In this document: piece by piece, positions 20,603-51,856 of the stretch | Numbering within the stretch: the stretch's first letter is position 1 | How the letters are laid out: the number at the start of each line of letters is the position of its first letter | From: Planctomycetia bacterium | GTDB lineage: Bacteria > Planctomycetota > Planctomycetia > Pirellulales > UBA1268 | Length of the DNA stretch: 64,000 nucleotides | Direction: 5' to 3' | NCBI GenBank assembly: GCA_014192425.1 | Contig: BJHK01000018.1 | Coordinates: forward strand, 6,986-70,985 | Made by a program: the position numbers and the translations under genes | The notes under the pieces: model-generated | Told to the model about the DNA's origin: nothing | The model's input: only the letters and a program-made list of their open reading frames with translations | The model's database searches: none

Positions 20603-20648
20603 GGATCGACTCTCCTGATGCGGCAAGCGGGCGTGTGGGAAATCGGAA

Positions 20649-34600: not shown

Positions 34601-35318
34601 GCCAGGCAGCGCCGCCGACGATCGTTGCCAGGGCCACCCCAGCGACCGCGGCGGCCGTGATGCCGAGCACGCTGCGGACGAGCTGACGCTGCCCCTTGTC
34701 GGCAGCCGCCCAGCCGAGGCCGAAGGCCAGTGCCAGCGCCCCCCCCTGCACCAGCCGCCAGACGGTCGCGTACGAGACGGGCGGCTGTCCCTGCAGGCCG
34801 TCCCCCGCGTGCCCGGTGAGGATGACGGCGAGCGTCAGCAGGCCGCCGAGGATCGACACGCCGCTGCCCCAGGCCAGCCGGGCGCCCGAGGCGGCGACGT
34901 GGAAGCGGGTGATCTTGGCGGCGATCAGGTTGACGAGGAGCACGAGGCCGATCGTGCCGCCGCCCGGAAAGGGAAACCAGCCGGGAATCCTCCGCCAGCC
35001 CTCGTCCTGGAAGATCGTCACCGGCAGGAAGTCGGCGAGCCTGATGATCGCGATCCAGCTGTTGAAGTACTCCGCCTTCACGTCGGGAAGGTTCTTCTCG
35101 TCCTGGACGAGCGTGCCGATGAAGAGGAGAAACACCGCGGCCAGGAACATGACCACGGTGATCTTCAGCGAGCCGAGGGCGCGGAGAGCCTGCCAGGCCA
35201 GCGAGTCATGCGTGCCGGCCCGCGATCGCGGCCGGGCGACATCGACGCCGATGCCGCGATCGAGCGGCAGACTTCCTGCGGACATGGATGCGGCCTCCGG
35301 GTGCCGGTGTCTGATCAC
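31623..35318 (-). CDS. ccsBA: Fused system II cytochrome c biogenesis protein CcsBA (ResB/Ccs1 + CcsA/ResC)
   Basis: The N-terminus is ResB-like (LGSLKITVVMFLAAVFLLFIGTLVQ). The C-terminus is CcsA-like, with the WWD motif WGRFWGWDPKENGAL and conserved His residues. An alternative ATG start lies at 35285. Confidence 0.85.
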   Translation of the reverse strand: MIRHRHPEAASMSAGSLPLDRGIGVDVARPRSRAGTHDSLAWQALRALGSLKITVVMFLAAVFLLFIGTLVQDEKNLPDVKAEYFNSWIAIIRLADFLPVTIFQDEGWRRIPGWFPFPGGGTIGLVLLVNLIAAKITRFHVAASGARLAWGSGVSILGGLLTLAVILTGHAGDGLQGQPPVSYATVWRLVQGGALALAFGLGWAAADKGQRQLVRSVLGITAAAVAGVALATIVGGAAWRMNDPGLRIMWQLIQSSAAALTLLVGLVMVFGNRGGNVLIHVAVGLLMLGQFAFGDRQIEERMSLVEGQTTNVACRTDEVELAVIDTGGSETDSVTAISGRLLAARAGGAPVSVDGLPFAIRVVEYFPNSTILRVGPVAPNRATTGLGRSWLADRRPPEGGGSSQPNVASAYVQLVAKEGEADLGTFLVSQWLNDFSQLNLTTAADECDSLAAAGTTWRLQLRFRREYKPYSVSLTDVRRINYSASETPRDYSSYVTFTDTATKADQQGRIWMNNPVRYRGETFYQSQYAMVPVGKEGRVEMTGLQVVTNAGWLIPYVACVLAFWGMLVHFGGTFLRFADRRERQPAAAAAPGPRRGRHGQHAAPAPRAVPQPGRSLLPAALALGLIGACVLAALPRGPRPGAADWRAAGSLPVMDAGRIKPLDSVARTTLQLLGNRTGVKMPADAPAGGPTGTVSATQWLLGLMAGSDWVERAPVFRIDAKEILDLFDLERRQGHRYAPAELEKGRAKLREQVATLRDVPAESRSFVQKKMIEIEQKFAAYDVIRFAYEAPALPNLDAGADRQQAIGEIRQMMQRARLIEDRKPPALIPPVAQPPAEEVSAATNATDWQSLYPAVMEAFTRRLTGNAGTISPAILPLSDLLAAQAAGPAEIDRAVTAYRQAIADLEPVRTGARMAAFEAWFLAFNPTDLAKWLYVFALVVCFASFLVGHAPLNRFAFWLLAGLFCLHTFAIVCRIAITGRPPVVNLYGSAVFIGWACVLAGLVLERLFRLGIGNLVAAASGALSLMIAYGLDSGDTMHVLQAVLDTQFWLSTHVVTVALGYGATFLAGLLATCSIVHGIATRQRSGDPALAREVTDVLHRMTYGVVCFALFFSFIGTVLGGLWADDSWGRFWGWDPKENGALMIVLWNAALLHARWDRWIGPRGFALFAIGGNIVTAWSWFGTNQLSIGLHSYGFTSGVLMLLGAYVLSQLALIVAGLVLTRSQAAPAAAG

Positions 35319-36095: not shown

Positions 36096-37154
36096 TCAAC
36101 GCCAGCCGAAGGTTTCCGCGATCTGATCGAGCACCGGGTTGGCGAGCATCGGCCCCTCGGCCGAGCCGATCGTGCGGACGAGATCGAAGACCACGAACCC
36201 GCCGCAGAGCAGGAGCAGCGAGCAGCAGACGAGGCCGGTGATCTGCAGGCCGCTGAACGGGGTGTCGAACGTGAACTCGGGACTTCCGCCGAGCATCACC
36301 GAGCCGCTGTCGACCGCCGAGCCGTCGTTGGTGAGCTGCGAGCCCTCACCCTCGATCGCCGTGCCGAAGAAGCTCGACTCCCCGGTCTCCTCGGTGGGGA
36401 TGACGACCGACGCGCTCTCCTCGTCGGTCGGCTCGCCGCCGAGGATGAACTCATCGCCTCCGAAGGCGCCGCTCGCATCGGACGAATAGATCACCGACGC
36501 CTCGCCCGAGCCGCTCTCGATTCCGCTCGCCTCCAGCGACAGGCCGCTGTCGAGCAGGCCCGATCGCTTGTTGCTCCCTCCGCCACCCGTCAGCGACGGG
36601 CCGGAGCTGACATTGCTGCCTCCGGTTCCCGAGACGTTCGACATGTTGAGGGCCAGCGAGTCGCCGGGCCCCGGGCCGATGCCGGTCGAACCGCCCTGCG
36701 ACGGCCGCGCCAGGGACGGCGAGGAGATGCCGACGATCGAGCCGAGCGACTCGAGCGACAGGTCCGCGTCTTCCCCGTCGCCGAGGTCGTCGAACACGCT
36801 CCCCGTCGGCAGGGACGGGCTCGATGGCGGACCCGAGGCGGCCGCGCCGCGGACGAGCGTCTGCGTGCCGTCGTCGTCCGCATCGAGAGGCTCTCCGAGC
36901 ACGATCTCGTCGGGGTCCGCGGCCGGCATGGCTGGCGCACCGGGGAGATCCAGATCGAGGGCCAGGTCGGTCCCCTGCGGCCCGTCGTCGCCGAGGTCGC
37001 TTGCCAAGCGTTCGACGTCCTCGGTGCGGAACTTGACGGTCGCACCGTCCCGCATCGGAAACAGCTTCTTGCGATCGACGAGGCGATTGACCTCATCCAC
37101 GGACACGCCCAGCAGGCGGGCGGCTTCCTCCAACGACACGAATCTTCCGGCCAT
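36096..37154 (-). CDS. Membrane-anchored protein with an N-terminal excisionase/MerR-type HTH, an acidic low-complexity linker and a C-terminal TM helix
   Basis: The HTH_17-like N-terminus reads VSLEEAARLLGVSVDEVNRLVDRKKLFPMRDG..VKF. A long Asp/Gly/Ser-rich region follows. The C-terminal hydrophobic segment is ITGLVCCSLLLLCGGFVVFDLV. Confidence 0.7.
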   Translation of the reverse strand: MAGRFVSLEEAARLLGVSVDEVNRLVDRKKLFPMRDGATVKFRTEDVERLASDLGDDGPQGTDLALDLDLPGAPAMPAADPDEIVLGEPLDADDDGTQTLVRGAAASGPPSSPSLPTGSVFDDLGDGEDADLSLESLGSIVGISSPSLARPSQGGSTGIGPGPGDSLALNMSNVSGTGGSNVSSGPSLTGGGGSNKRSGLLDSGLSLEASGIESGSGEASVIYSSDASGAFGGDEFILGGEPTDEESASVVIPTEETGESSFFGTAIEGEGSQLTNDGSAVDSGSVMLGGSPEFTFDTPFSGLQITGLVCCSLLLLCGGFVVFDLVRTIGSAEGPMLANPVLDQIAETFGWR

Positions 37155-37324
37155 GGCGGCTCATCCCCGGGGATCGGGCTCTCCGATCATCTCTCTTTTC
37201 GTCGGAACGCCCGAGCGTATTCTACGGCCGGTCGCCACGGATCGCGCAGCCTGCGCGACCCGCAGCCCTGAAACGTGCGGTCCGGAACCGGCGCCAGCGG
37301 CCTGCCGGGACCGGTTTTCGGCCT

Positions 37325-37708
37325 TCAGCGCGGCGGCTGCCCCGCCTCCAAGAGCTTGCGGATGGCGGCCGGCCGCGGCTCCTGGGCGTTGAACTCGCCC
37401 ACCATCAGGTCCCAGGTCAGGTCGCGGGCACTCTTCAGCGCGAGCGTGCCGTCGGCATCGACGACGTAGGCGGCCGCATGCCGCGTACCCGGGTCGACCA
37501 CCACGACCAGATGGCGGGCGTCCGGAAGCGGGCTCGTGGAAACGACGAGTTGTCCGCTGCCGGCCGGGATCGCCGGCCGTTGTCCGGACGCCGGCAGGCC
37601 GGAGACGGCAAGCAGCGCGGCGACGCAGGCCGTGAATCCCGCGGCAATGGCGCCGAGCGGCGGGCGGTTCGCGGAGCGGGAGGAGGGCGGGGGCGACGGG
37701 TCTGGCAT
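37325..37708 (-). CDS. Small hypothetical exported or anchored protein
   Basis: The internal start is MPDPSPPPSSRSANRPPLGAIAAGFTACVAALLAVSG. A beta-rich domain of about 90 aa follows. Confidence 0.5.
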   Translation of the reverse strand: MPDPSPPPSSRSANRPPLGAIAAGFTACVAALLAVSGLPASGQRPAIPAGSGQLVVSTSPLPDARHLVVVVDPGTRHAAAYVVDADGTLALKSARDLTWDLMVGEFNAQEPRPAAIRKLLEAGQPPR

Positions 37709-37968
37709 GGTGGACGTTGCTCTCGCGGGCGGAACCGATCGTGGTGACCAAGAGATCACTTCTCTGTACCGCTCGTCGTCCGGCCATCGCAAGGCCGGCC
37801 CCGGCGACCCATCTTGCCGGCCTTGCCCGGCCTCTCGGCTTGGTTTCGGTCTTTCGTCGTGCCGGATGTTTGGATTGAATCGCCTGGGCAAGGGCTACCG
37901 ATGATTGCGGTGGCGGCTTTCCGGCGCGACAGTTCGCGTCGCTGGCCCGTCGCTGGAGGAATCATTCC

Positions 37969-39261
37969 GTGGTGAACATGAACGGCCTGTCCGCGGCCTT
38001 GCTCCGCTCGCCCCTGCTGTGGGGCGGCGCGTTGGCCTTCGCCTTCTTCGCGCTCATTCACGGCGGCGTCGTCTCCGACCCGACCGTGGTCCGCTACCTC
38101 GCCGGGCACTGGGTCGAGTACGTCGAAGTGGCGATGTTCTGCGTCGGACTGGCGGCGCTGGCGATCAAGGCCGGCGACATTGCCCGGCAGCGGCGATCGC
38201 TCGGCGCGACGTCCCTGGCCGCGATACCCCCGGGCGGACAGGATCCCGCCGAGGCGGCCGCGCTGCTGGAGCAGCTGCCGGCCGAGGATGCGGCCCGTGG
38301 CTACCTCCCGGCCCGGCTCCGTGAGGCCCTCGATCTCGTGGTCCGGACCGGGTCCGCCGACGGCCTCGAGGACCACGTCAAGTATCTCTCCGATCTCGAC
38401 GCCGCCCGCGCCGCGCATGGGTACGGCCTCGTGCGGTTCGTGATCTGGGCGATTCCGATCATGGGCTTCCTGGGCACGGTGATCGGGATCACCGTCGCCA
38501 TCGCCTGCCTGTCCCCCACGCAGCTGGAGAACATCTCGGGCGTCGTCGCCGGCCTGGGCACGGCCTTCGACACGACGGCGACCGCCCTCGGCCTGTCGAT
38601 GGTGCTGATGTTCCTGCAGTTCCTCGTCGACCGCTCCGAGCAGGGGCTCCTGTCGGCGGTCGACCGGGCGGCGTGGGAGCAGCTCGCGGGCCGGTTCCAG
38701 TCGCTCGCCGGCGCGGATGGCACGGCGCTGGCCGTGGCGAAGCTCGGCGAGTCGCTGTCGCGCGGCGGCACGCGTTTGCTCGAGGCCCAGGAGCATGCCT
38801 GGCGGGCGCTGGAGCGAACGGCGGCGACCGGGCTCGAGCAGGCGCTGGGCAACGCCGCCGCGACGCTGCGCGAGACGCTCGCCGAGTCGCTCGACGCGAG
38901 CCTCGGTCGCTGGGGCGAGGCGCTGGCCCGCGTGCACGACGAGCATGCCAGCCGTCGCGAGCAGCGCTGGACCGACGCGGCGGAGTCGCTGGCCGTGGCG
39001 ATCCGCGGGCTGGAGCGTCATCAGCAGGTTCTCGACGACCAGACGCGGATGCTCGGCGAGGTCGTCGGCGCCACCCGCGACCTGGCGGTCCTGGAGCGGT
39101 CGCTGGATGCCAATCTGGGAACGATCGCCTCGGCGGGTCGGTTCGAAGAGGCTCTCGCCACGCTGGCGGCGGCCGTGCAGCTGCTGGCGGTGCGGGCCGG
39201 ATCCGCCGAAGAGCGGCACATCGATCTGCGGTCCGCGCACCGCGTCGGAAAGGCCGCATGA
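37969..39261 (+). CDS. MotA/TolQ/ExbB-family proton-channel protein with a roughly 190-aa helical C-terminal extension
   Basis: The TM pattern and signature segments FVIWAIPIMGFLGTVIGITVAI and GLGTAFDTTATALGLSMVLMFLQF fit the family. The tail is Ala/Leu/Glu/Arg-rich and looks like coiled coil. Confidence 0.8.
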   Translation: MVNMNGLSAALLRSPLLWGGALAFAFFALIHGGVVSDPTVVRYLAGHWVEYVEVAMFCVGLAALAIKAGDIARQRRSLGATSLAAIPPGGQDPAEAAALLEQLPAEDAARGYLPARLREALDLVVRTGSADGLEDHVKYLSDLDAARAAHGYGLVRFVIWAIPIMGFLGTVIGITVAIACLSPTQLENISGVVAGLGTAFDTTATALGLSMVLMFLQFLVDRSEQGLLSAVDRAAWEQLAGRFQSLAGADGTALAVAKLGESLSRGGTRLLEAQEHAWRALERTAATGLEQALGNAAATLRETLAESLDASLGRWGEALARVHDEHASRREQRWTDAAESLAVAIRGLERHQQVLDDQTRMLGEVVGATRDLAVLERSLDANLGTIASAGRFEEALATLAAAVQLLAVRAGSAEERHIDLRSAHRVGKAA

Positions 39262-41318
39262 GTCGCCCGCGCCCGGCCGAAGGGCCGACGGTATCGCTGT
39301 TCCCGTTCCTGGCCGTGCTCCTGTGCACGATGGGATCGCTGCTCGTCCTGCTCGTCCTCTTCAGCCGCTCGGCCCGGGAGGGCGACCGGGCCGCGGCCGA
39401 GGCGGCCGCAGCCGCCGCACGGCACCATGCGGAGGAGCGCGGGCTCCTGCGGGACGAACTGGCCTGGCGGCTGGAGCAACTGCAGGCGGTGCGCGAACGG
39501 ACGGCCGCTGACCTCGCCCGGGAGCGGCTGCGCCTCGCCGGCGCCGAGGACGATTCGCGCCGGCTGGCCGACGAACTGGCCGACCTCGAGCGCGTCGCCG
39601 CGGCCCTCGCCGCCGATGCCGCCGGCGCCCCGGCTGCCGACAAGGATGGCGAACTCGCGGCCCGGCTCGCGTCCACGAAGGAATCGCTCGACAAGGCGCG
39701 CAAGGAAGCGGCGGCCAGGCCGCCGGCGTATGCTGTGGTCCCCTACCAGGGCGCCCACGGCACGCACCGCCGGCCGCTGTACATCGAGTGCTCGCTCGAC
39801 GGCGTCTACCTGCAGCCGGAAGGGATCCGGCTCGGGCCGACCGACTTCGAGGGGCCGCCGGGGCCGGGCAATCCGCTGGCCAGCGCCCTGCGGGCGGCCC
39901 GCGAGCACGTCGCGGCGCAGACCGGCGACGCCGGCGATCCCGCCGCCCAGCCCTACCCGCTGCTGCTCGTGCGGCCGTCGGGCGTGATGGCCTACTACGC
40001 GGCCCGGGAGTCGATCCAGTCGTGGGGCAGCGAGTTCGGCTACCAGTTCATCGACGAGGAGTGGACGCTGCAGTTTCCCCCGGCCGACCCCCGGCTGGCG
40101 CAGGCGGAGCAGCGGGCGATCGACGAGTCGCGTCGGCGGATCGCCTGGCTGGGCGAGTCGCGGCGCCAGCGGGCCGTGCGGCCGACGCAGCAGTTCCGCG
40201 CGGCGACCACCCGGGGCGGAGTCGTCGCCACTGGCGGACCGACCGTGCTTGGCGATCAGTCTCGATTCGACTGGACAGAGGAGCAGGCGGCTCAGGCCGG
40301 CGGCGCCGAGCCCGGCCGCGGGTTTTCGCCGCGCGACCGGGCGGGGCCGCAGCGGGCCGAGAGCCTGGCGACCTCCGGCGCCGACGTGCTCAACGGCAGG
40401 CTTGGAGCCGCTGGGCAGGGAGATCAGGCCGCGGGAGGAGGCAACGCTGGCGGCTCGGGCGCCGGCGGCTCGGGCGCCGGCGGCTCGGGCGCCGGCGGCT
40501 CGGGCGGGAGCGGCTCGGGCGCCGGTCCGCAGGGCGCGGGGAGCGGGTACGCAGGCCCCTCACGGTTCTATGCCGGCGCCTCCGACGGCAACGCACGCGG
40601 GGATGCCCGGCAGCCCGGCGTCGGCGAACCGGGGAACCCGGAGTCGGGTGGCGGCGATGCGAACACAGCCGGCGACCAACCCGGCGGGGCTGGCGGCCGA
40701 AGCGGTGCCGCCGGTGGCCCTGGAGGCGATGCCATGGCGGAAGCCGGCGGATCCGGCACGGGACGATCCGGCTCGGCAGCCGGCCAGTCGGCTTCCGCCG
40801 GCGGCGCCGCCGGCGGTGGCGGCAGCATGCAGGGGCCGGCGGGGCTCGGGGGGGCGGCCGGCTCCACCCAGGCCGGCGGCGCGTCCGGCGGCGCGGCGAC
40901 GATGTCGCTGGCCGGGCAGCGCGGCAGCAACTGGGCGAGCCTCGCCAGCGCGGAGCGGCCCGTGCCGCTGCGGCGGCCGATCCGCGTCGCCTGCACGGCC
41001 CGGGAAATGCAGGTCCTCGACGACGGCGGCCGGCGCGTCGACACGCGGATTGCCTGTCCGGGCGCGACGGTGTTCGCCGTCGATCCGCTCGTGACCGCGA
41101 TCCACGCCAAGGTCGCCGGCTGGGGAATCGCCGGCGATCGGATGTATTGGAAGCCCGAACTGATCCTCTCGGCCTCCGCGGGGGGCGAGGGGCGACGCGA
41201 GGAACTGGAGCGGCTGCTCGCCGACAGCGGCCTCGACACGCGCCGCGCCGAGTCGCCGCAGCGGGTCGAGCGGCTTCCGTCGATCGAACGCACCGGCGCG
41301 GTCGGACTGCAACGCTGA
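39258..41318 (+). CDS. Single-pass membrane protein: TM, coiled coil, beta-rich module, Gly/Ala/Ser-rich disordered linker, second module (distantly ExbD/TolR-like?)
   Basis: The ATG at 39258 overlaps the upstream stop (ATGA). The N-terminus is MSRPRPAEGPTVSLFPFLAVLLCTMGSLLVLLVLF. High GC3 continues through the ORF. It is a paralogue of the next gene. Confidence 0.7.
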   Translation: MSRPRPAEGPTVSLFPFLAVLLCTMGSLLVLLVLFSRSAREGDRAAAEAAAAAARHHAEERGLLRDELAWRLEQLQAVRERTAADLARERLRLAGAEDDSRRLADELADLERVAAALAADAAGAPAADKDGELAARLASTKESLDKARKEAAARPPAYAVVPYQGAHGTHRRPLYIECSLDGVYLQPEGIRLGPTDFEGPPGPGNPLASALRAAREHVAAQTGDAGDPAAQPYPLLLVRPSGVMAYYAARESIQSWGSEFGYQFIDEEWTLQFPPADPRLAQAEQRAIDESRRRIAWLGESRRQRAVRPTQQFRAATTRGGVVATGGPTVLGDQSRFDWTEEQAAQAGGAEPGRGFSPRDRAGPQRAESLATSGADVLNGRLGAAGQGDQAAGGGNAGGSGAGGSGAGGSGAGGSGGSGSGAGPQGAGSGYAGPSRFYAGASDGNARGDARQPGVGEPGNPESGGGDANTAGDQPGGAGGRSGAAGGPGGDAMAEAGGSGTGRSGSAAGQSASAGGAAGGGGSMQGPAGLGGAAGSTQAGGASGGAATMSLAGQRGSNWASLASAERPVPLRRPIRVACTAREMQVLDDGGRRVDTRIACPGATVFAVDPLVTAIHAKVAGWGIAGDRMYWKPELILSASAGGEGRREELERLLADSGLDTRRAESPQRVERLPSIERTGAVGLQR
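40449..40523 (+). repeat. In-frame 15-bp tandem repeat (GGCGGCTCGGGCGCC, about 5 copies) encoding (GGSGA)n
   Basis: Read directly from the sequence. It lies within the disordered linker of CDS 39258..41318. Confidence 0.9.
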
Positions 41319-41359
41319 CCGGCCGTCACGGCCACCGGAAAGAAGACGGAGACGCATCG

Positions 41360-42355
41360 ATGCCACGCCCCAGGCCCGAGGAGATCAGTTCCGCCGGGCA
41401 GGACTCGTTTCTCGACGTCGTCACGAACATCGTCGGCATCCTCATCATCCTCGTGATGGTCGTGGGGGGCCGCGTCCGGCAGATCGTGCTCGCGCCCCGC
41501 CCCGCGCCGGCCGCGGCCGCCACCGACCTCGACCACGAGGTGGGGCGGCTCCAGGACACGGTCGATTCGGCGGAGAGCGAGATCGAGCAGCTCCAGGCCC
41601 AGACTAAGACCGTGGCCATGACGGCGGCGCACGTCGCCGAGGCGCGGCTGCAGCTGGCGACCGCCGTCTCGCTGGCGAAGCACGTGGTCGAGGAACAAAA
41701 GCGCGGCGTCGATGCGGCCCATGCGGCCGCCGCCGAGGCCGACGTCCGCCGCCGGCGCATGGAGGAGGAGATCGAGCGCTACCGGCTGGAGCTCGACGGT
41801 CTCTCCCATCGCCCGGCAACGACCCGCGAGGTGCTCGCCTATCCGACGCCGATCGGCCGCACCGTCAACGGCGACGAGCTCCACTTTCGCATCGCCGGCG
41901 GCCGGATCGCCTACATCCCGTTGGAGGAGCTGTTCGAGCGGGCCAAGTCCCACGTCGAGCGGAACCAGCGCCGCATCGACGATCTCGTGTCGCGGCCGCA
42001 GCGGGTCGGACCCGAGCAGGGCTTCATGCTCGAACTCGTGATCGACGTTCGCATCGACCAGGCCCGCGGCCAGATGCTCACGACCTCGCGCGAGTGGGTC
42101 GTGCAGCCGGTCACGCCCGAGACGGGCGAGACGGTCGACGAGGCGCTCGGCTCGACGTCCCGGTTCCGGCGCGTGCTCGCCGGCGTCAAGCCGGACACGA
42201 CCGTGACGCTGTGGTGCTACCCCGACAGTTTTGCCGGGTATCGTCGCGTCCGCGAGGAACTCTACCGGCTCGGCATCCCGACCGCCGGCCGGCCGCTGCC
42301 CGAGGGGGCGCCGATCGGCGGCTCCGCGGAGGGGAGCAAGTCGGTCGTGCAGTGA
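41360..42355 (+). CDS. Single-pass membrane protein: TM with an Asp, coiled coil, beta-rich module (distantly ExbD/TolR-like?)
   Basis: The product starts MPRPRPEEISSAGQDSFLDVVTNIVGILIILVMVVG. A coiled-coil region of about 120 aa follows, then DELHFRIAGGRIAYIPLE...TVTLWCYPDSFAGYRRVREELYRLG. Confidence 0.7.
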   Translation: MPRPRPEEISSAGQDSFLDVVTNIVGILIILVMVVGGRVRQIVLAPRPAPAAAATDLDHEVGRLQDTVDSAESEIEQLQAQTKTVAMTAAHVAEARLQLATAVSLAKHVVEEQKRGVDAAHAAAAEADVRRRRMEEEIERYRLELDGLSHRPATTREVLAYPTPIGRTVNGDELHFRIAGGRIAYIPLEELFERAKSHVERNQRRIDDLVSRPQRVGPEQGFMLELVIDVRIDQARGQMLTTSREWVVQPVTPETGETVDEALGSTSRFRRVLAGVKPDTTVTLWCYPDSFAGYRRVREELYRLGIPTAGRPLPEGAPIGGSAEGSKSVVQ

Positions 42356-42388
42356 TCCCGGCGCTCGTGCAGCACGCTGGCCGCAGCG

Positions 42389-43801
42389 CTAGTCGCGCCG
42401 CTCCGCGCGTGGCGGCGCGCCGTCCGGCTGCCACCAGGCGTCGAGGCTCGTCCGCAGGCTCGCGACGACGTCCGGCTGCTCGGCCGCGAGGTTGCGGTGT
42501 TCCGCCGGGTCGGCCGCGACGTCGAACAGCTCCACCGTGCCCGCGGCGTGGCGGGCCCGCGATTCGGCATCGACGTTGCCCCAGGCGCGCTTGGGAATGC
42601 CGTCGCCGCGGTCGGCGGTCGTGGGAACGATCAATTTCCAGATCCGGCCGTCGGCCTCGGCCCTGACCGTCCAGCGCCAGAGCAGGCCGCGGGCGGGATC
42701 GTCGAGATCGACGATCGTGTGCGTGTAGCACTCACCGAAGACCTGCGTGCGTGCTCTGCTTCGCTCCGCGTCGAGCAAATTCACTCCCGGCAGGCCCGCC
42801 GGGGGCGCCACGCCGCAGGCGGCGAGGATCGTCGGCATGATGTCGATCGCGCTGGCGAGTGCGCCGTCGGACCGCGGGGCGATCGTCCCCGGCCGGCGCA
42901 GCATGATCGGCGTCCGCAGGCCACCGTCGTAGGGCGAGAGCTTCGAGCGGGGGGCGAAATTCTGCCGCGCGGGATCCTGGATCCAGCCGTTGTCGGTCAC
43001 GTAGACGACGAGCGTGTCGGCGGCGAGCTTCTCCCGGTCGAGGAAGTCGAGCAGGTCGCCGACGGTCCGGTCGAACCGCTCCACGTTGGCCCAGTAGCGG
43101 GCCACATGGGCGCTGTCGGTCCGGGACTCGTAATGCTCGAGGAGATCCCGGGGCGGGTCGAACGGGGAGTGCGGCAGCATCGGCGCGTACCAGACGAAGA
43201 ACGGTTTTCCTTCCGCGCGGCAGGCGGTCGCGAAGTCGTAGACCGGCTGCATCGTCTCGCGGCCGATCGTCAGCCCGTCGTCGCCGTGCCGTGCCCCCTT
43301 CGTCATGCCGGCGTCGAACCCGCCGCGCCGAAAGTCCCCCTGCCACCACTTGCCCGTCTGCAGCGAGCGATAGCCCGCCGTGCCGAGCGCGGCCGGCAGC
43401 GTCGGGAAGGCCTCCAGCATCCGGTTCATCCGTTCGCGGCCGGCTGCGAACGCCTCTCTGCCCGCGGGCGACTCGCGGGGTTGGCCGGCATGCTCCGGCG
43501 GGTCGTTGCCCACGATGCCGTGCTCGTGCGGGTAGCGGCCGGTGATCAGGCTGGCCAGGCTGGGGCAGCACAGGCTGCTCGGCACGTAGCCGCGCGTAAA
43601 GACGAGGCTTTCCCGGGCGAGCCGGTCGAGGTTGGGCGTGCGGAGAGTTGCATGCCCTATGAATCCGTAGTCGCCCCAGTGCTGGTCGTCGGAGACGATG
43701 AGCACGACGTTGGGCGGCGCGGCGCCGGCCAGCGCCGCACATGCGGCCAGGGCGAACCAGAGCGTCGATCGGACGGCGGCGTGCGCGACCATGGCCAACA
43801 T
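42389..43801 (-). CDS. Sulfatase-family (arylsulfatase-like) exported enzyme with a non-canonical CCPSL maturation motif
   Basis: A signal peptide is present. Motifs include NVVLIVSDDQ and SSLCCPSLASLITGRYPHEHG, plus typical downstream sulfatase blocks (GKWHQ-like GKWWQG, YVTDNG). Confidence 0.9.
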   Translation of the reverse strand: MLAMVAHAAVRSTLWFALAACAALAGAAPPNVVLIVSDDQHWGDYGFIGHATLRTPNLDRLARESLVFTRGYVPSSLCCPSLASLITGRYPHEHGIVGNDPPEHAGQPRESPAGREAFAAGRERMNRMLEAFPTLPAALGTAGYRSLQTGKWWQGDFRRGGFDAGMTKGARHGDDGLTIGRETMQPVYDFATACRAEGKPFFVWYAPMLPHSPFDPPRDLLEHYESRTDSAHVARYWANVERFDRTVGDLLDFLDREKLAADTLVVYVTDNGWIQDPARQNFAPRSKLSPYDGGLRTPIMLRRPGTIAPRSDGALASAIDIMPTILAACGVAPPAGLPGVNLLDAERSRARTQVFGECYTHTIVDLDDPARGLLWRWTVRAEADGRIWKLIVPTTADRGDGIPKRAWGNVDAESRARHAAGTVELFDVAADPAEHRNLAAEQPDVVASLRTSLDAWWQPDGAPPRAERRD

Positions 43802-43872
43802 GGGCTTGCCATCCGCGCGATGCGCACCGGCGCACGGGAGGACGACGAGGAATTTCAGCCTATAGTACGGCT

Positions 43873-44529
43873 GTGAGCCACGACACGAAAACCCTCATTC
43901 TCGTCCCGACGGAACTGGAGCGCAGCCGGCTGCGGGCGGACCTCGGGCCGTCGTGCCTGGCTGCCGACCGCCTCGAGCTCTGCGGCTTCGGCCCAGTGGC
44001 CGCCGCGGCCCGCACGGCCACACTGTTGGCCCGCGACCGGCCCGCCCGGGTGCTCCTCGTGGGCATCGCCGGGGCGATCGACGCGGGCATCCCCCTTGGT
44101 GCCGCGCGGCGATTCGCCGCCGTCGCCTGCCACGGCGTCGGCGCGGGAACCGCCGCGGATTTTGCCCCGGCCGGCGCCCTCGGCTGGCCGCACTGGCCCG
44201 GCGACGACGGCTCGCCGCCGATCGGCGACTCGATCCCCCTCGACGCGCCGGGCGACGCGGGCGACGCCGGCCTGCTCCTGCTCACGGTCTGCGCGGCGTC
44301 GGGCTCCGCCGCCGACGTCGCCGAGCGCCGCCGGCTGTTTCCCGCTGCCGTGGCCGAAGACATGGAGGGATTCGGCGTGGCCCTCGCCTGCCGCCTCCAC
44401 GGCGTGCCGTGCGCGATCATCCGCGGGATCTCGAACGTCGCCGGCGATCGCGACACGTCCCGCTGGGCGACGGCCGAGGCGCTGGCGGTCGCGGCGGCGC
44501 TCGCGCATGCATTCCTCGCGGAGGCATAG
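43873..44529 (+). CDS. mqnB: Futalosine hydrolase (nucleosidase family)
   Basis: The GTG start gives VSHDTKTLILVPTELE. The nucleosidase motif AVAEDMEGFGVA is present. The gene lies immediately upstream of mqnD. Confidence 0.8.
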   Translation: MSHDTKTLILVPTELERSRLRADLGPSCLAADRLELCGFGPVAAAARTATLLARDRPARVLLVGIAGAIDAGIPLGAARRFAAVACHGVGAGTAADFAPAGALGWPHWPGDDGSPPIGDSIPLDAPGDAGDAGLLLLTVCAASGSAADVAERRRLFPAAVAEDMEGFGVALACRLHGVPCAIIRGISNVAGDRDTSRWATAEALAVAAALAHAFLAEA

Positions 44530-45366
44530 ATGGGCCGGACCATTCGCCTCGGCATCTCGACCTGCCCGAACGACACCTTCGCCTTCCACGGCCTGCTCAC
44601 CGGCGCCGTCGATCGGCGCGGCCTCGACTTCGACGTGCGGCTGCTCGACATCGAGCAGCTCAACGAAGGGCTGTTTCGCGGCGAATTCGACGTCGCCAAG
44701 GCGAGCTTTCATGCCGTCCTGCACGTGGCCGCCGACCACGTCGTCCTGCCGAGCGGCTCGGCGCTCGGCTTCGGCGTCGGCCCCCTGCTCCTGGCGGCCC
44801 GGCCGGGCACGGTTCCCACGGGCCCCGACCAGCTCACGCTCTGCCCGGGGCGGCACACCACCGCCGCGCTCCTGAGCGCCGTCTTCCATCCGGGCACGGC
44901 CCGCGTCGAGCACGTCGTGTTTTCCGACATCATGCCGGCGCTCGTGGCGGGCCGGGCCGACTTCGGGGTCTGCATTCACGAGGGACGGTTCACCTGGCAG
45001 CGGCACGGGCTTTCGCTCGTGGAGGACCTGGGGACGCGCTGGGAGGCGGAGACAAAGTGCCCGCTGCCGCTCGGAGGGATCGTGGCCAGCCGGCGGCTCG
45101 ACGCCGGCACGATCGCCGCCGTGCAGGGGGTGATCCACGACTCGCTGCGGCTCGCGCGCGCCGATCCAGCGGCGGCCCTGCCGACGATGCGGGCCCATGC
45201 CCGCGAGCAGGAAGACGACGTGATCATGCGGCACGTCGACCTGTACGTGAACGAGTGGACCGTGGACCTCGGCGCCACGGGCCGCCGGGCGCTCGACGAG
45301 TTTTCCAAAAGGGCAGCGGCCGTCGGACTTGGTTCTAACGGCCGCTTGGAAGTGTTTGCGGGCTGA
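44530..45366 (+). CDS. mqnD: 1,4-dihydroxy-6-naphthoate synthase
   Basis: The N-terminal LGISTCPNDTFAFHGL is the hallmark of MqnD/VitK2 biosynthesis proteins. Confidence 0.85.
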   Translation: MGRTIRLGISTCPNDTFAFHGLLTGAVDRRGLDFDVRLLDIEQLNEGLFRGEFDVAKASFHAVLHVAADHVVLPSGSALGFGVGPLLLAARPGTVPTGPDQLTLCPGRHTTAALLSAVFHPGTARVEHVVFSDIMPALVAGRADFGVCIHEGRFTWQRHGLSLVEDLGTRWEAETKCPLPLGGIVASRRLDAGTIAAVQGVIHDSLRLARADPAAALPTMRAHAREQEDDVIMRHVDLYVNEWTVDLGATGRRALDEFSKRAAAVGLGSNGRLEVFAG

Positions 45367-45692
45367 TGCCCCGCGTTCTCGCAATCCTCACGAGCCTCGG
45401 GTGAGCCCGGTCACGGCGTCGCCGGCAGGGCCGGTTTCTCGTGTGGCCCGCCGCCGTCAATCGAATCCCCTGGCGGATCCGATCCGGGAAAGTGCAACCC
45501 CTCACAGGCAGCTGCCACCGCCGGGCAGTCGCTTGCGCAGGAAGTTCATCCGCTTCTCAATCGGCAGTGCCAGCCGGCGGCGGATGAGCGCAAGGGGCTG
45601 ACGTCCATGACGGGATCGTACCATCACGTGAGCAGTGACGTCGCGTCGGCTCATGCCCGCGGCCGAGGCCACCCACGTGGCGTGCCAGGCTT

Positions 45693-48650
45693 TCAGCGCG
45701 GGCGGGGCGCGGCGACCGGCTGCTCCCAGGCGGCCAGCGGCACGCAGCTGCAGAACAGGTTGCGGTCGCCGTGGACGTTGTCCACCCGGCCCACCGGCGG
45801 CCAGTACTTCGACCGGCGCAGGGCCGCCACCGGGAAGGCGGCGGTCTCGCGCGGATACGGGTGCGGCCACTCGTTGCCGGCCACCGTGGCCGCGGTGTGC
45901 GGAGCGTGCTTGAGCGGGTTGTCGTCCTGCGGCCACTCCCCCGCCTCGATCCGGGCGATCTCCGCGCGGATCGCGACCATCGCCTCCACGAACCGGTCGA
46001 GCTCGGCGAGCGGCTCGCTCTCCGTCGGCTCGACCATCAGCGTCCCCGGCACCGGGAAGCTCAAGGTCGGGGCGTGAAAGCCGTAGTCGATGAGCCGCTT
46101 GGCCACGTCCTCGGCCGTGACGCCGCTGGTCTCCTTGAGCGGCCGGAGGTCGAGGATGCACTCGTGGGCCACGCGGCCGCCGGCGCCGGCGTAGAGCGTG
46201 GGGAAGTGGCCGCGGAGCCGGACGCTCACGTAGTTGGCCGCGAGGATCGCCGCCTCCGTCGCGTGCACGAGCCCCTCGGCGCCCATCATCCGGCAATACA
46301 TCCAGCTGATCGGCAGCACCGCGGCGTTGCCCAGCGGCGCGGCCGACACGGCGCCGACGTCGCTCGGCGGCAGGCCGCCGGCAACATGCCCGGGGAGGAA
46401 CGGCACGAGGTCCTCGACCACGCACACCGGGCCCACGCCCGGGCCGCCGCCGCCGTGCGGAATGCAGAACGTCTTGTGGAGGTTCAGGTGGCTGACATCG
46501 CCGCCGAACCGGCCGGGGGCCGCGAGGCCGACGAGCGCGTTCATGTTGGCCCCGTCGACGTACACCCGGCCGCCGTGCCGGTGGACGATGTCGCAGAGCG
46601 CGCGGATCGACGTCTCGAAGACGCCGTGCGTGCTCGGGTAGGTGATCATCACCGCGGCCAGCCGGTCGGCATGCTGCCGGCACTTTTCCCCGAGCTCGGC
46701 CAGATCGACGTTGCCCTGGGCGTCGCAGCCGGTGACCACGACCTGCATGCCCACCATCTGGGCGCTGGCCGGATTGGTGCCGTGGGCGCTGGCCGGGATG
46801 ATGCAGACGTCGCGCTGCCCCTGGCCGCGCGACCGCTGCCAGGCCTGGATCGCAAGCAAACCGGCGTATTCCCCCTGGCTGCCGGCATTGGGCTGGAGGC
46901 TGATCCCGGCGTAGCCGGTCGCCGCGGTCAACCAGCGGCGCAGGAGCGTTTCGAGCTCCGCGTAGCCCTGCCGCTGGTCGGCCGGCGCGAAGGGGTGCAC
47001 GTGGGCGAACTCGGGCCACGTGATCGGGATCATCTCGCTCGTGGCGTTGAGCTTCATCGTGCAGCTGCCGAGCGGGATCATGCTCCGGTCGAGCGCCAGG
47101 TCCCTGTCGGACAGAGAGCGGATGTACCGCAGCATCGCCGTCTCGGAATGGTGCGTGTGGAACACCGGATGGATGAGAAACTCGCTCGACCGGCGCAGGG
47201 CCGCCGGGATCAGCGGCGCGGCCTCCCGCTCCACGGCGGCGCGGTCGGGAAGCGGCTGCCCGGCGGGGGCGAACACGCGCATCAGCCGCGCGACGTCATC
47301 GGCGGTCGTCGTTTCGTCGAGCGCGATCGCCAGCGTGCCGGCGTCGAGCACGCGCAGGTTCATCCCCAGGTCGCGGGCCCGGGCCGCGAGGGCCGTGGTC
47401 TGATCGCCCGTGTCGAGGCACAGCGTGTCGAAGGCCTGTGCATGGCGCAGGCGGACGCCGAGCCGGCCGAGGCCGGCCGCGAGGGTCGCCGTCAGCCGCG
47501 ACACACGCTCCGCGATCCGCGTCAGGCCGGCGGGGCCGTGGTACACCGCATACATGCTCGCCACGACGGCGGGCAAAACCTGCGCCGTGCAGATGTTGGA
47601 GGTTGCCTTCTCGCGCCGGATGTGCTGCTCGCGGGTCTGGAGGGCGAGCCGATAGGCCGGGCCGCCGTGGGCGTCGATGCTGACGCCGACGAGCCGGCCT
47701 GGAAGGGACCGCTTCAGCTCGTCGCGGCAGGCGAGGTAGGCGGCATGCGGGCCGCCGCAGCCCATCGGCATGCCGAACCGCTGCGTGCTGCCGACGACGA
47801 TGTCGGCGCCCCACTCGCCCGGGGGCGCGAGGAGCACGAGGGCCAGCGGGTCGGCGGCCACGCAGAGCAGCGCCTGCCGGGCGTGGACCTTCTCGGCGAG
47901 GCCGCGTTGGTCGTCGAGGCCGCCGTCGGTGGCCGGATACTGGACGAGCGCGCCGAAGCAGTCGTGGCTCTCGACGAGGGCGGCGACGTCGCCGACGACG
48001 AGCTCGATGCCCAGCGGCCGGGCCCGGGTGGCGAGCACCTCGAGCGTCTGCGGGTGGCAGCGTCGGTCGGCGAGAAACACCGGGCTCTTCGCCGCGGCTG
48101 AGCGGCGGGCGAGCGTCATCGCCTCGGCGGCGGCGGTGGCCTCGTCGAGCATCGACGCGTTGGCGATCGGCATGCCGGTGAGGTCGCAGACCATGGTCTG
48201 GAAATTGACCAGCGCCTCCATCCGGCCCTGGCTGATCTCGGCCTGGTACGGCGTGTAGGCCGTGTACCAGGCGGGATTCTCCAGGATGTTCCGCAGGATC
48301 ACACCCGGCGTGTGCGTGCCGTGGTAGCCCTGGCCGATGAAGCTCTTGAGGAGCCGGTTGCGGGCCGCGATCCCCTTCAGTTCCTCGAGCGCCGCCGCCT
48401 CGGTGGCGGCCGCGGGCAGGTCCATGCGGTCGTGCCGGGCGATGCTCTCCGGCACGATCTCGGCGATCAGCGCGGGCAGCGAGGCCGCGCCAACGACGTC
48501 GAGCATCTGCCGCTCGTCGGCGGCGGAGAGACCGATGTGGCGGGCCTCGAACTCTGAGGGGCCGGCGTGATCGACCCGCGGTGCGGGGGCGGGACGATCG
48601 GCGGCCGCGGAGGGGGACTCGGCCCGGCGGGCCGTGAGCAGGTCTGACAT
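45693..48650 (-). CDS. gcvP: Glycine dehydrogenase (aminomethyl-transferring), single-chain P protein
   Basis: The 985-aa product aligns by eye over its full length with GcvP ([38 protein letters not shown]). A glycine riboswitch precedes it. Confidence 0.95.
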
Positions 48651-51298: not shown

Positions 51299-51856
51299 TC
51301 ACTCGCGGGCGGCCAGCACCTCGTCGAGCTGCTTCTCAACGCCGAGCGGGCCGGCCCAGCGGCGCAGGTAGCGCTCGTCGAGCTCGCCCTGCGTGAACAG
51401 AATGTCCTGGATGTCGATCAGGTCGCGAGGCCGCGCCGCGATCAACTTGAAGAGAATCAGGTCCTCGGCGGAGACGAGTTTGACGGACCGCCCCTCGATG
51501 TCCGCCGCGACGTGCCGCTCGATGACCTCCCGCTGGAAGTCGGTCTCGGCGATGAAGATGTCCGCATCGACGGCCCGGCCGTCCAAAAACAGCCTGACTT
51601 TCACCAGCGGCATGCCACCGACGCTGTCGACCCAGCCGCGAGAGTATTGCTCGGGCACGCTGTAGCCACGATCGGTGATCGCCGCGAACATCGCCCCCAG
51701 CCGGTCACGGGGAACGGCGAGGGTGAAGTCGACGTCGTAGGTAGGGCGCGGAATGCCATGCGCCCGGACGGCGATGCCGCCCATGATCGCGTAGGACAGT
51801 CCGAGCCGGTCGAATACATCGACGAGATCGTGAATGACGGTGGTCAGGTCGGACAT
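51299..51856 (-). CDS. Minimal nucleotidyltransferase-fold protein (DUF6036/MNT-like)
   Basis: The NTase signature is IMGGIAVRAHGIPRPTYDVDFTL (hGG...x...DhDh). The product is 185 aa and the gene overlaps the upstream small gene by 13 nt. Confidence 0.7.
   Translation of the reverse strand: MSDLTTVIHDLVDVFDRLGLSYAIMGGIAVRAHGIPRPTYDVDFTLAVPRDRLGAMFAAITDRGYSVPEQYSRGWVDSVGGMPLVKVRLFLDGRAVDADIFIAETDFQREVIERHVAADIEGRSVKLVSAEDLILFKLIAARPRDLIDIQDILFTQGELDERYLRRWAGPLGVEKQLDEVLAARE

Follow-up and report, generated by a model that had tools for sequence, protein, structure and literature searches.

Three adjacent genes (g1, g2 and g3) in a 64,000-nucleotide stretch of a Planctomycetia bacterium genome (contig BJHK01000018.1; the window) look, judged by their sequences, like a core-genome planctomycete operon that encodes a version of the known MotA/ExbB motors with a partner architecture found in no known family. 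We consider it probable that their products form one inner-membrane, PMF-driven motor of the MotA/ExbB '5:2' kind, specific to Planctomycetota, in which g2 and g3 together provide a heterodimeric axle. g1 belongs to the MotA/ExbB family, all three proteins carry characteristic motifs that are conserved, and the order of the genes is kept among relatives.

A preliminary description of the window had placed three genes in positions 37969-42355, and the open reading frames were confirmed there on the plus strand with coherent codon-position GC (third-position GC = 0.88-0.93 in the called frames of g1, g2 and g3, with a frame plot coherent over all three, Table 1). The GTG start of g1 agrees with the N-termini of the aligned g1 homologues. 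The overlap between the g1 stop and the g2 start, which had been pointed out before, is present as ATGA, and the same 4-nt overlap was also found in seven gene-called relatives (loci L001, L004, L085-L088 and L093). A promoter scan and an Rfam scan of positions 37000-42600 returned nothing useful. On the whole, the preliminary description was right about the layout, the motifs and the linker of g2; a shared beta-rich module and paralogy of g2 and g3 over their full length were not supported.

Table 1. Features of the g1-g2-g3 locus (positions within the window)
Feature	Position	Strand	Description
Shine-Dalgarno-like GGAGGA	37955..37960	+	8 nt 5' of g1 GTG start; read from sequence
g1	37969..39261	+	430 aa; MotA/TolQ/ExbB-family channel subunit; Pfam PF01618; GC3 0.91
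g1 MotA_ExbB core, residues 118-219	38320..38625	+	Pfam match; GTV (T170) and DTT (D201, T202, T203) in last two TM helices
g1 C-terminal helical tail, residues 220-430	38626..39258	+	composition and conservation; ends in conserved G(K/R)AA
ATGA overlap, g1 stop/g2 start	39258..39261	+	translational coupling; seen in sequence
g2	39258..41318	+	686 aa; single-pass; order: TM helix, coiled coil, globular domain, disordered linker, C-terminal alpha/beta domain
g2 TM helix	39297..39365	+	near-invariant motif LFPFLAVLLCTMG; Ala19 at 39312-39314, position of ExbD Asp25
g2 long helix/coiled coil, to about residue 153	39366..39716	+	AF2 helix; periodicity; homology to g3 N-terminal part
g2 membrane-distal conserved domain, residues 155-300	39720..40157	+	RRPLYIEC...PYPLLLVRPSGVMAYYAARE; family conservation
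g2 Gly/Ala/Ser-rich disordered linker, residues 307-569	40176..40964	+	composition, AF2; sequence and length variable
g2 C-terminal beta-beta-beta-alpha-beta-alpha-beta domain, residues 570-665	40965..41252	+	AF2
GGAG	41348..41351	+	8 nt 5' of g3 ATG; read from sequence
g3	41360..42355	+	331 aa; single-pass; order: TM helix, ~100-residue coiled coil, alpha/beta domain, C-terminal peptide
g3 TM helix	41399..41473	+	motif G-x-DSFLDVVxNxVGILIILV; Asp19 at 41414-41416
g3 heptad coiled coil, residues 52-149	41513..41806	+	AF2 single helix and heptad periodicity
g3 alpha/beta domain, residues 160-308	41837..42283	+	motifs YPTP, HF, VGP, LGE, TxTLWxYPDSF; AF2
g3 C-terminal peptide AGRPLPxGxPIGGSxxGSKSxxQ	42284..42352	+	strongly conserved family-wide, loci without g1 included

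By its sequence, g1 is a bona fide MotA_ExbB member, in agreement with the MotA/TolQ/ExbB signature noticed earlier: it matched PF01618 above the cut-off (E = 7.3e-9, 35.9 bits, cut-off 22.9, residues 118-219), and the domain was carried by 120 of 120 g1 homologues among the matches listed. There are 850 g1 homologues with 64-98% identity across the full length. Hydropathy indicated four hydrophobic segments, at about residues 17-35, 54-72, 164-182 and 202-220. D201, T202 and T203 are invariant in an alignment of 45 sequences and T170 is kept in at least 90% of them; in an alignment with ExbB, T170 and T203 fall on the Thr of GTVWG and that of LATAMG, two residues that we take, from ExbB structures, to be pore-lining. 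g1 was far from every solved motor (ExbB, E = 0.015-0.17; PomA, E = 0.49), and in PDB searches the g1 family profile gave marginal matches only (ExbB, E = 0.17). The tail of g1 is rich in Ala, Leu, Glu and Arg as described before (55% over residues 220-430), homologues span it at 100% coverage, and its length and sequence are kept down to 35-44% identity; it has no match in Pfam or PDB. By analogy with MotA/ExbB, we infer that this helical tail is cytoplasmic.

The claim that g2 and g3 are clearly paralogous holds for the N-terminal ~112-125 residues (BLASTP E = 6e-6; hhalign E = 1.7e-7, probability 94%), a stretch that takes in TM helix and coiled coil, and not beyond it. The beta-rich module proposed to be common to the two proteins was not significant (hhalign E = 0.15), and the second copy of it inside g2 came down to 19 aligned columns (hhalign E = 3.5e-4, probability 37%). 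The heptad-like coiled coil attributed to both proteins was recovered in g3, where the power at period 3.5 was 41-46 vs 4-7 in shuffles; in g2 the amphipathic period of the coiled coil peaks at 3.6 rather than 3.5. TM helix and globular domain lie 135-148 residues apart in g2 and 142-150 apart in g3 (52 loci), and this match of helix lengths speaks for side-by-side pairing. About 2.2 Lys+Arg occur on either side of the TM helix, so topology is not settled by the positive-inside rule. No His was found in the TM helix of g2 or g3.

The Asp in the TM region was correctly assigned to g3 only: g3 has Asp19 where g2 has Ala19, and both states are conserved family-wide. Asp19, a candidate proton-binding residue on sequence evidence, is present in 254 of 255 motif-bearing family members. 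The g3 family comprises 1314 clusters at 50% identity (E <= 1e-3), or 456 at E <= 1e-30, and nearly all members are 320-350 aa long among the matches listed. The AF2 models, all of monomers, showed a single helix in g3 with pLDDT >89 from about residue 61 to 140. The alpha/beta domain that follows had no significant PDB match by sequence profile or Foldseek.

In g2, Ala19 is kept in 119 of 120 close homologues, and nine more distant loci, whose g3 is 31-55% identical to that of the window, have Ala as well except L080 (Asp) and L090 (Gly). The FPFLAVLLC motif is conserved as strongly as the TM motif of g3, and near-invariance of this kind is well above what a plain membrane anchor needs. AF2 placed helices at residues 15-121 and 127-153 (pLDDT 82-95 except for a break near 121-130). 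Residues 155-300 are the best-conserved region of g2, and the AF2 model there is poor (pLDDT 33-73, mostly 40-60). The Gly/Ala/Ser-rich linker recognised earlier was confirmed (263 residues, 60% Gly/Ala/Ser, predicted disordered), and orthologues of g2 range from 541 to 1053 aa. The C-terminal domain was modelled with pLDDT 84-91, dipping to 55 around residues 621-630, and Foldseek gave weak matches only, to ribosomal uS11-type folds (E = 0.045-0.1).

Profile searches, which had been suggested as a check, did not place g2 and g3 in the ExbD/TolR, TonB or TolA families. Neither g2 nor g3 had a family match in Pfam, NCBIfam, PADLOC or PDB, where the profile search with g3 gave coiled-coil noise only. 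Specifically, there was no match to ExbD/TolR (PF02472) at E <= 1 or in NCBIfam, no Pfam match to a TonB_C/TolA C-terminal domain or to a vWA domain, and no OmpA-like peptidoglycan-binding domain of the MotB/PomB/ZorB type in Pfam, NCBIfam or PADLOC. Furthermore, ExbD, OmpA-family, TonB_C and TolA were absent from the 25 most-matched Pfam families of 43 diverse g3 and 50 g2 members. Because no canonical ExbD/TolR gene was found in the window or in 85 loci, hhalign comparisons used an ExbD/TolR alignment of three sequences (among them E. coli ExbD, checked against PDB 6TYI, and E. coli TolR), a size that limits their power. With this profile, g2 ISLFPFLAVLL aligned in register with ExbD INVTPFIDVML, with Ala at the Asp position (E = 0.0037, probability 9%), and g3 SFLDVV aligned in register with ExbD PFIDVM (D25, E. 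coli numbering) over six columns, which is not significant; the likeness of the TM motifs to ExbD is thus short and individually weak (probability <10%). An ExbD/TolR-type TM helix with a conserved Asp near the cytoplasmic end was found in g3 and not in g2. Neither by profile nor by Foldseek did the periplasmic domains of g2 and g3 resemble ExbD, TolR, TonB or TolA significantly. The earlier characterisation of both as TolR-like partners could be demonstrated for the TM helix motif and not for the periplasmic domains.

Among relatives, the order g1-g2-g3 was found in 53 of 53 g1-containing loci, and the trio is tightly co-conserved down to ~31% identity of g3, an outcome in favour of the linkage that the preliminary description had proposed to check. 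The trio was found only in Planctomycetota as far as sampled, in very many planctomycete genomes, and its conservation is core-gene-like (60-70% identity over many genomes). The flanking genes differ in loci L085-L088. g1 is present in 53 of 58 loci and coupled to g2 in every gene-called relative examined. In the other five loci g2-g3 occur without nearby g1; the Asp and the TM motif of g3 have decayed in three of them and the Asp is kept in two, while the periplasmic domain and the C-terminal peptide of g3 are conserved in all five. The presence of g1 and the g3 Asp are linked, the Asp being lost in 0 of 53 loci with g1 vs 3 of 5 without it (P-value = 3e-4, Fisher test, phylogeny ignored). 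Since five loci keep g2-g3 without g1, and two of these keep the Asp, some role of g2-g3 needs no adjacent g1. The loci without g1 and with decayed TM motifs are ready comparative controls.

These features suggest a machine for which we infer the assembly, its stoichiometry, an N-in/C-out topology, coupling to ions and a role in envelope force transduction as follows. g1 would build a ring that conducts ions, its helical tail lying in the cytoplasm, and inside this ring g2 and g3 would form a heterodimeric axle (5:1:1) out of their homologous N-terminal TM helices. The sole proton-carrying Asp would come from g3 (D19), g2 having a fixed Ala there; we know of no characterised 5:2 motor that runs with one Asp per axle. 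Past the membrane, the g2 and g3 helices of matched length (about 100 residues, ~15 nm) would pair as a coiled-coil stalk that bears the alpha/beta head of g3 and the conserved domain of g2, and the ~260-residue Gly/Ala/Ser tether of g2 would lead to a small distal alpha/beta domain reaching the wall or the outer membrane. Proton flow via g1/g3 would turn or cycle the axle and exert pull or rotation on an outer-envelope partner, and the job done in other bacteria by ExbD plus TonB (or TolR plus TolA) would be merged into the axle proteins. The earlier interpretation survives as far as it proposed a stator-like channel with two single-pass partners of no known family, but the likeness to TolR and ZorA is weaker than was stated. 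We advance more tentatively, as a possibility that we ourselves doubt, that the trio is a lineage-specific proton-driven envelope machine in which the ring turns an asymmetric single-Asp g2/g3 axle that is itself the force transducer, and that it does Tol-Pal/Ton-type work in place of those systems. If this is true, the work of the machine could include outer-membrane tethering or invagination in budding, or powering uptake into the enlarged periplasm.

An axle made of a g3 homodimer (5:2), as in ExbD, TolR and MotB, would leave g2 as a TonB/TolA-like force transducer or regulator that either docks outside the ring or takes a place in the axle as an inactive subunit without the Asp. The use of two Asp-bearing subunits by all characterised 5:2 motors known to us, the family-wide lack of Asp in g2, its TonB/TolA-like TM-linker-globular layout and the greater uniformity of g3 in length all agree with such an arrangement. 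However, we think it unlikely, because g2 and g3 have homologous TM helices, that of g2 fitting the trans-pore motif of ExbD and not the SHLS/His motif of TonB/TolA, and because the FPFLAVLLC motif of g2 is conserved on a par with the g3 motif and the matched helix lengths favour pairing side by side. The two proteins might instead serve as a membrane-anchored coiled-coil strut, or spacer, in the wide periplasm of planctomycetes, with g1 as an accessory channel or regulator and no force generation. Although the five loci that keep the periplasmic domains of g2-g3 intact without adjacent g1 fit this scaffold, as does the fact that g2/g3 are most strongly conserved in their periplasmic domains and in the C-terminal peptide of g3, we regard it as quite improbable: g1 accompanies g2-g3 in nearly all loci and is translationally coupled to g2 in the gene-called relatives examined, about 98% of members keep the charged Asp in the TM helix of g3 and this Asp decays only without g1, and g1 retains both Thr positions that align with ExbB.

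A Zorya-like anti-phage sensor, in which a MotA-like protein with a long cytoplasmic tail signals envelope damage to effectors, was also considered, as the tail of g1 is long and helical and PADLOC gave ZorA matches to g1 (weak, best E = 9e-5). These matches are limited, however, to residues ~164-231 (~70 residues) in the common TM core, and the g1 family profile found no ZorA in PDB at E <= 1. In g2 and g3 PADLOC detected none of ZorB, ZorC and ZorD; the only matches there were weak ones of coiled coils to the JetC and LmuB models. The neighbours of the trio within 9 kb (ComEC, ResB/CcsA, HTH_17, sulfatase, MqnA-like and GcvP) are housekeeping genes in conserved synteny, the sole defence-type gene seen in the window is an AbiEii-like ORF ~9 kb off, and core-gene-like conservation speaks against a defence system. 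On genomic context and the PADLOC results this reading was rejected as extremely unlikely; of the ZorA resemblance suggested earlier, the helical C-terminal tail and the weak TM-core matches stand, and nothing further. As had been reported, no TonB, Tol, Pal, OmpA-like (MotB) or flagellar genes were found among the window ORFs scanned, nor did any Pfam family among them point to gliding.

Full-text literature searches found no description of the trio, and g2 and g3 are described in none of the annotation sources searched. To our knowledge, MotA/ExbB-type motors are the sole bacterial route by which inner-membrane energy reaches the wall, the outer membrane and the surface. New partner architectures have so far each brought to light a new cell function, as in flagella, Ton, Tol, gliding with type 9 secretion, and Zorya. 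If the heterodimer model is right, the trio offers a natural test of whether one proton-binding residue is enough for a 5:2-type motor, and is a case of stator and force transducer fused in one axle. The planctomycete periplasm is enlarged, and FtsZ is, as far as we know, absent in planctomycetes. Tol-Pal was reported to be largely reduced in Planctomycetes (PMC8871954). Given these three features, the trio would, if the model is right, be a candidate for energising the atypical planctomycete envelope. In TraDIS essentiality tables of Planctopirus limnophila (PMC10632474), at least two unrelated MotA/TolQ/ExbB genes (Plim_0746 and Plim_2583) appear, both non-essential, and no orthologue of the trio was located among the entries listed.

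Of the known systems most like the trio, ExbB-ExbD-TonB and TolQ-TolR-TolA share with g1 the Pfam family and the GTV and Thr motifs in the last two TM helices. Additionally, the partner gene lies directly downstream in ExbB-ExbD and TolQ-TolR, as g2 does after g1, and the ExbD/TolR partner is a single-pass protein with (F/L)(I/L)D(V) at the N-terminal end of its helix, as in the trio; the layout of TonB/TolA (TM helix, extended region, disordered linker, distal globular domain) resembles that of g2. The trio differs from Ton/Tol in having a ~100-residue coiled coil between TM helix and globular domain, two different axle candidates of which one lacks the Asp, no separate TonB/TolA with the SHLS/His helix, and a g1 with four hydrophobic segments and a ~210-residue tail. 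ZorA-ZorB is similar in that its MotA-family subunit has a long helical tail at the C-terminus, in the cytoplasm, but the g1 tail is far shorter and unrelated in sequence, and the trio lacks both an OmpA-like ZorB and a ZorC/D effector.

Williams-Jones et al. (2025, PMC12204202) proposed that, beside TolQ-like genes, TolR can be replaced by heterologous pairs of trans-pore-helix proteins, and reported the vWA pairs among them mainly from Proteobacteria and Verrucomicrobia. Like the trio, these comprise two single-pass proteins with TolR-like helices and their own periplasmic effector domains, without ExbD/TolR, and direct insertion into a TolQ-like pentamer is proposed for both; unlike them, the trio has a coiled coil and unclassified alpha/beta domains, and the Asp in one partner only. 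Myxococcus AglR-AglQ/AglS similarly combines one TolQ/MotA-like subunit with two distinct TolR-like partners, although the Agl proteins lack a coiled-coil stalk and a tether and the Glt genes are not near the trio. AglQ and AglS are small ordinary TolR-family proteins. With GldL and GldM, for which g1, g2 and g3 gave no Pfam matches, the difference is that GldM is a homodimer of folded domains, where the trio would have a heterodimeric coiled coil plus a disordered tether. The likeness of the proposed trio to GldL-GldM/PorL-PorM is that the axle protein itself would span the periplasm as a long dimer, with no TonB-like hand-off.

Because the G+C content of the window is 72%, it contains many long spurious ORFs. 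The three genes of the preliminary description, namely g1 (the MotA/TolQ/ExbB-family channel gene) and g2 and g3 (downstream genes for single-pass coiled-coil proteins), are real, as judged from the GC content by codon position (0.88-0.93 at third and 0.47-0.63 at second positions in their frames, as expected for coding sequence) and from a sliding frame plot that was coherent over 37969-42355. The neighbours of the trio are an HTH_17 gene that diverges from it and a sulfatase gene that converges on it, and the trio is therefore a self-contained three-gene unit. The region of about 800 bp 5' of g1 (37155-37968) holds no convincing gene, the third-position GC of ORF 37161-37787 being only 0.63, and Rfam and promoter scans of this region found neither an Rfam match nor a sigma-70-like promoter. 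The divergent HTH_17 gene is kept at its position in most loci with enough upstream sequence, including the related locus L093 (~31% identity), and is absent from the distant loci other than L093; its product may be a regulator.

Coordinates of the trio and of other features in the window
Feature	Position	Strand	Description
g1	37969-39261	+	GTG start; 430 aa; GGAGGA 8 nt upstream
g2	39258-41318	+	686 aa; ATG start overlapping g1 TGA (ATGA)
g3	41360-42355	+	331 aa; preceded by a 41-nt spacer with GGAG
G(K/R)AA closing the g1 C-terminus	39247-39258		strikingly conserved
g3 C-terminal peptide	42284-42352		AGRPLPxGxPIGGSxxGSKSxxQ; strikingly conserved
HTH_17 gene	36096-37154	-	352 aa; N-terminal HTH_17 (excisionase-type); divergent from g1
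ResB/CcsA-like ORF	31623-35318	-	single 1231-aa ORF; ResB-like and CcsA-like (Cytochrom_C_asm) cytochrome c assembly domains
Extra segment after g3	42389-48650		~7.5 kb relative to L001, L004 and L093; sulfatase, MqnA-like menaquinone gene, glycine dehydrogenase GcvP
AbiEii-like ORF	51299-51856	-	nucleotidyltransferase toxin-like; between Aminotran_3 and SAM_HAT genes; nothing at this site in related loci
TPR protein	19268-20626	-	452 aa; TPR repeats and two RNA polymerase alpha C-terminal domain matches, an unusual combination
Large ORF	10930-12978	+	682 aa; good codon-position GC; no Pfam match
Large ORF	13005-15389	-	794 aa; good codon-position GC; no Pfam match
Large ORF	22211-23851	+	546 aa; good codon-position GC; no Pfam match

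Residues 118-219 of g1 matched the Pfam family MotA_ExbB above its curated threshold (E 7e-9), and the NCBIfam ExbB, TolQ and MotA models and the PADLOC ZorA models gave sub-threshold matches only, all on the transmembrane (TM) core. The nearest solved proteins were ExbB chains (E 0.015); searching the PDB with a family profile of 45 g1 sequences brought no improvement (ExbB E 0.17, PomA 0.49), and ZorA was not among its matches. Because these matches to solved proteins are weak, g1 is a deep, separate branch of the MotA/ExbB superfamily. Hydropathy revealed four hydrophobic segments, which is the MotA-like count, and T170 (FLGTVIG) and T203 (FDTTATALG) align with the two Thr of the ExbB motifs GTVWG and LATAMG. 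Among the 45 sequences (identity down to 29%), D201, T202 and T203 are invariant and T170 is present in at least 90%. The tail (residues 220-430; 55% Ala/Leu/Glu/Arg) matched nothing known in Pfam or in the PDB profile search; it is kept at full length in relatives at least 38% identical, and the g1 of L093 (35% identical) has 404 aa. Its terminal G(K/R)AA is invariant.

Neither g2 nor g3 matched a Pfam, NCBIfam or PADLOC family apart from coiled-coil noise, which was likewise alone among the matches listed when 43 diverse relatives of g3 and 50 of g2 were scanned singly. The two had been described as paralogues, and this holds for the N-terminal third: BLASTP aligned residues 1-112 only (34% identity, E 6e-6), and profile-profile comparison found the TM helix and coiled coil to be homologous (probability 94%, E 1.7e-7). 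Beyond this third, a proposed shared beta-rich module aligns where predicted, yet not significantly (profile-profile E 0.15), and a second copy of it claimed within g2 came down to 19 columns (E 3.5e-4, probability 37%); neither was sustained. Except for this confinement of the paralogy, the description of the trio was largely correct.

The AlphaFold2 model of g3 (mean pLDDT 77) consists of a TM helix (14-44), an unbroken helix (52-149; pLDDT >89 over residues ~61-140) and, at 170-325, an alpha/beta domain. In g2 (mean pLDDT 56), a helix at 15-153 is followed by a conserved but poorly modelled domain (155-300), a disordered stretch (307-569) and a confident beta-beta-beta-alpha-beta-alpha-beta domain (570-665). 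The heptad signal of the g3 helix is sharp (period-3.5 power of 41-46, versus 4-7 in shuffles), and the periodicity of the g2 helix peaks at 3.6. Foldseek searches against the PDB gave no significant match for either model, the best being ribosomal uS11-type folds for g2 (E 0.045-0.1, TM about 0.4) and uS11, RNase H-like and NTF2-like folds for g3 (all E ≥0.066).

The TM motif is G-x-DSFLDVVTNIVGILIILV in g3 and SLFPFLAVLLCTMG in g2. Using a small ExbD/TolR alignment (E. coli ExbD checked against PDB 6TYI chain Y), SFLDVV of g3 was paired with PFIDVM of ExbD over 6 columns, which is not significant, and ISLFPFLAVLL of g2 with INVTPFIDVML (E 0.0037, probability 9%). In these alignments, each weak taken alone, ExbD D25 corresponds to Asp19 (D19) of g3 and Ala19 of g2. 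What is not weak is the conservation of these residues: D19 was found in 254 of 255 motif-bearing g3 sequences, and Ala at position 19 in 119 of 120 close relatives of g2 and in seven of nine more distant g2-bearing loci, the exceptions being L080 (Asp) and L090 (Gly).

The related loci L080, L089, L090, L091 and L094 carry g2-like and g3-like genes (the latter at about 7001-8000 in each) but lack any MotA_ExbB gene within 7 kb. D19 of g3 is replaced by Asn in L089 and L091, and in L090 the entire TM motif is degenerate; D19 was lost in none of the 53 g1-containing loci (Fisher p = 3e-4 versus g1-less loci, shared ancestry uncorrected). D19 is retained in L080 and L094, and therefore g1 may lie elsewhere in these genomes. 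In every g1-less locus inspected, the periplasmic domain of g3 is intact, as is the C-terminal peptide (AGRPLPxGxPIGGSxxGxxSxAQ/E). Selection thus acts on the TM motif of g3 jointly with g1, and on the periplasmic module independently. Of all the evidence gathered, this pattern argues most strongly for g3 acting inside or against g1, and it also shows that a role of g2 and g3 can outlive g1. In the g2-like gene of L080 (4400-6950), Asp replaces the near-universal Ala (LLPLLDVLLCTMG) and frameshifts break the gene; QueC, QueD and an IS4/5 transposase lie upstream in place of g1. Either a faulty assembly or decay of the locus could account for this variant.

Relatives of g3 are numerous: more than 1000 in a 90%-clustered collection (the best 120 being 61-97% identical), and 1314 clusters at E ≤1e-3 and 456 at E ≤1e-30 in a 50%-clustered library, the best 150 of which nearly all measure 320-350 aa. 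In species-representative genomes, a scan confirmed at least 576 stretches, which correspond to hundreds of genomes and not to 576, as up to two patterns may match one gene. Most of the best 80 records bear planctomycete names; some are MAGs labelled Kuenenia, and a few carry labels that are evidently wrong. By tblastn and gene calls, the order g1-g2-g3 was found in 53/53 g1-containing loci, and the 4-nt g1/g2 overlap in all seven gene-called relatives containing g1. In close relatives, the trio is flanked by ResB/CcsA (the 1231-aa type of ORF), a hypothetical gene and HTH_17 on one side and by Aminotran_3, SAM_HAT, GatB, GatA, GatC and L28 on the other; the window has this downstream block too, shifted by about 7.5 kb. 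Neighbours differ in the distant relatives L085-L088, and therefore linkage is confined to the trio itself, which sits in core-genome territory.

The core of the preliminary interpretation is supported. The trio most likely encodes a variant motor of the MotA/ExbB kind, conserved across Planctomycetota, whose axle proteins are unclassified. By homology with the MotA/ExbB family, g1 would form the ion-conducting ring. Because the TM helices of g2 and g3 are homologous and equally conserved, with matched spacing to the globular domain (135-148 residues in g2 and 142-150 in g3, 52 loci), the simplest model places one helix of each in the pore. These helices would extend into a parallel, heterodimeric coiled coil some 15 nm long (about 100 residues × 0.148 nm), with g3 supplying the single Asp of the axle and g2 contributing a flexible linker (263 residues in the window, widely variable among orthologues) and the distal domain. 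Driven by proton flux, the axle would rotate or cycle and would act on a wall or outer-membrane partner. We infer an N-in, C-out orientation from the ExbD-like Asp position and the basic N-termini; charge counting around the TM helices was uninformative. The tail of g1, being long and conserved, may make a further contact in the cytoplasm, and the conserved C-terminal peptides of g1 and g3 look like docking peptides. On balance, we moderately favor a PMF-coupled complex of the three proteins acting on the envelope.

A full-text literature search found no description of the g1-g2-g3 operon. A survey of MotAB relatives contains many "generic ion transporter" clades without assigned function, and in part of its text Planctomycetota are mentioned only in flagellar stator clades and the word "coiled" is absent (PMC12505986). 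Tol-Pal is reported to be largely reduced in Planctomycetes (PMC8871954), and an essentiality study of P. limnophila reported 108 essential proteins that are specific to the phylum and have no known function (PMC10632474). Membership tests by profile match placed g2 and g3 outside ExbD/TolR, MotB/ZorB, TonB/TolA, GldM and the vWA transducers. The way of working proposed for the trio is that of Ton/Tol, and the flexible linker and distal domain of g2 are laid out like domains II and III of TonB/TolA. The nearest published concept to the g2/g3 pair is that of heterologous vWA protein pairs with trans-pore helices adjoining TolQ-like genes, proposed in 2025 from structure prediction (PMC12204202).
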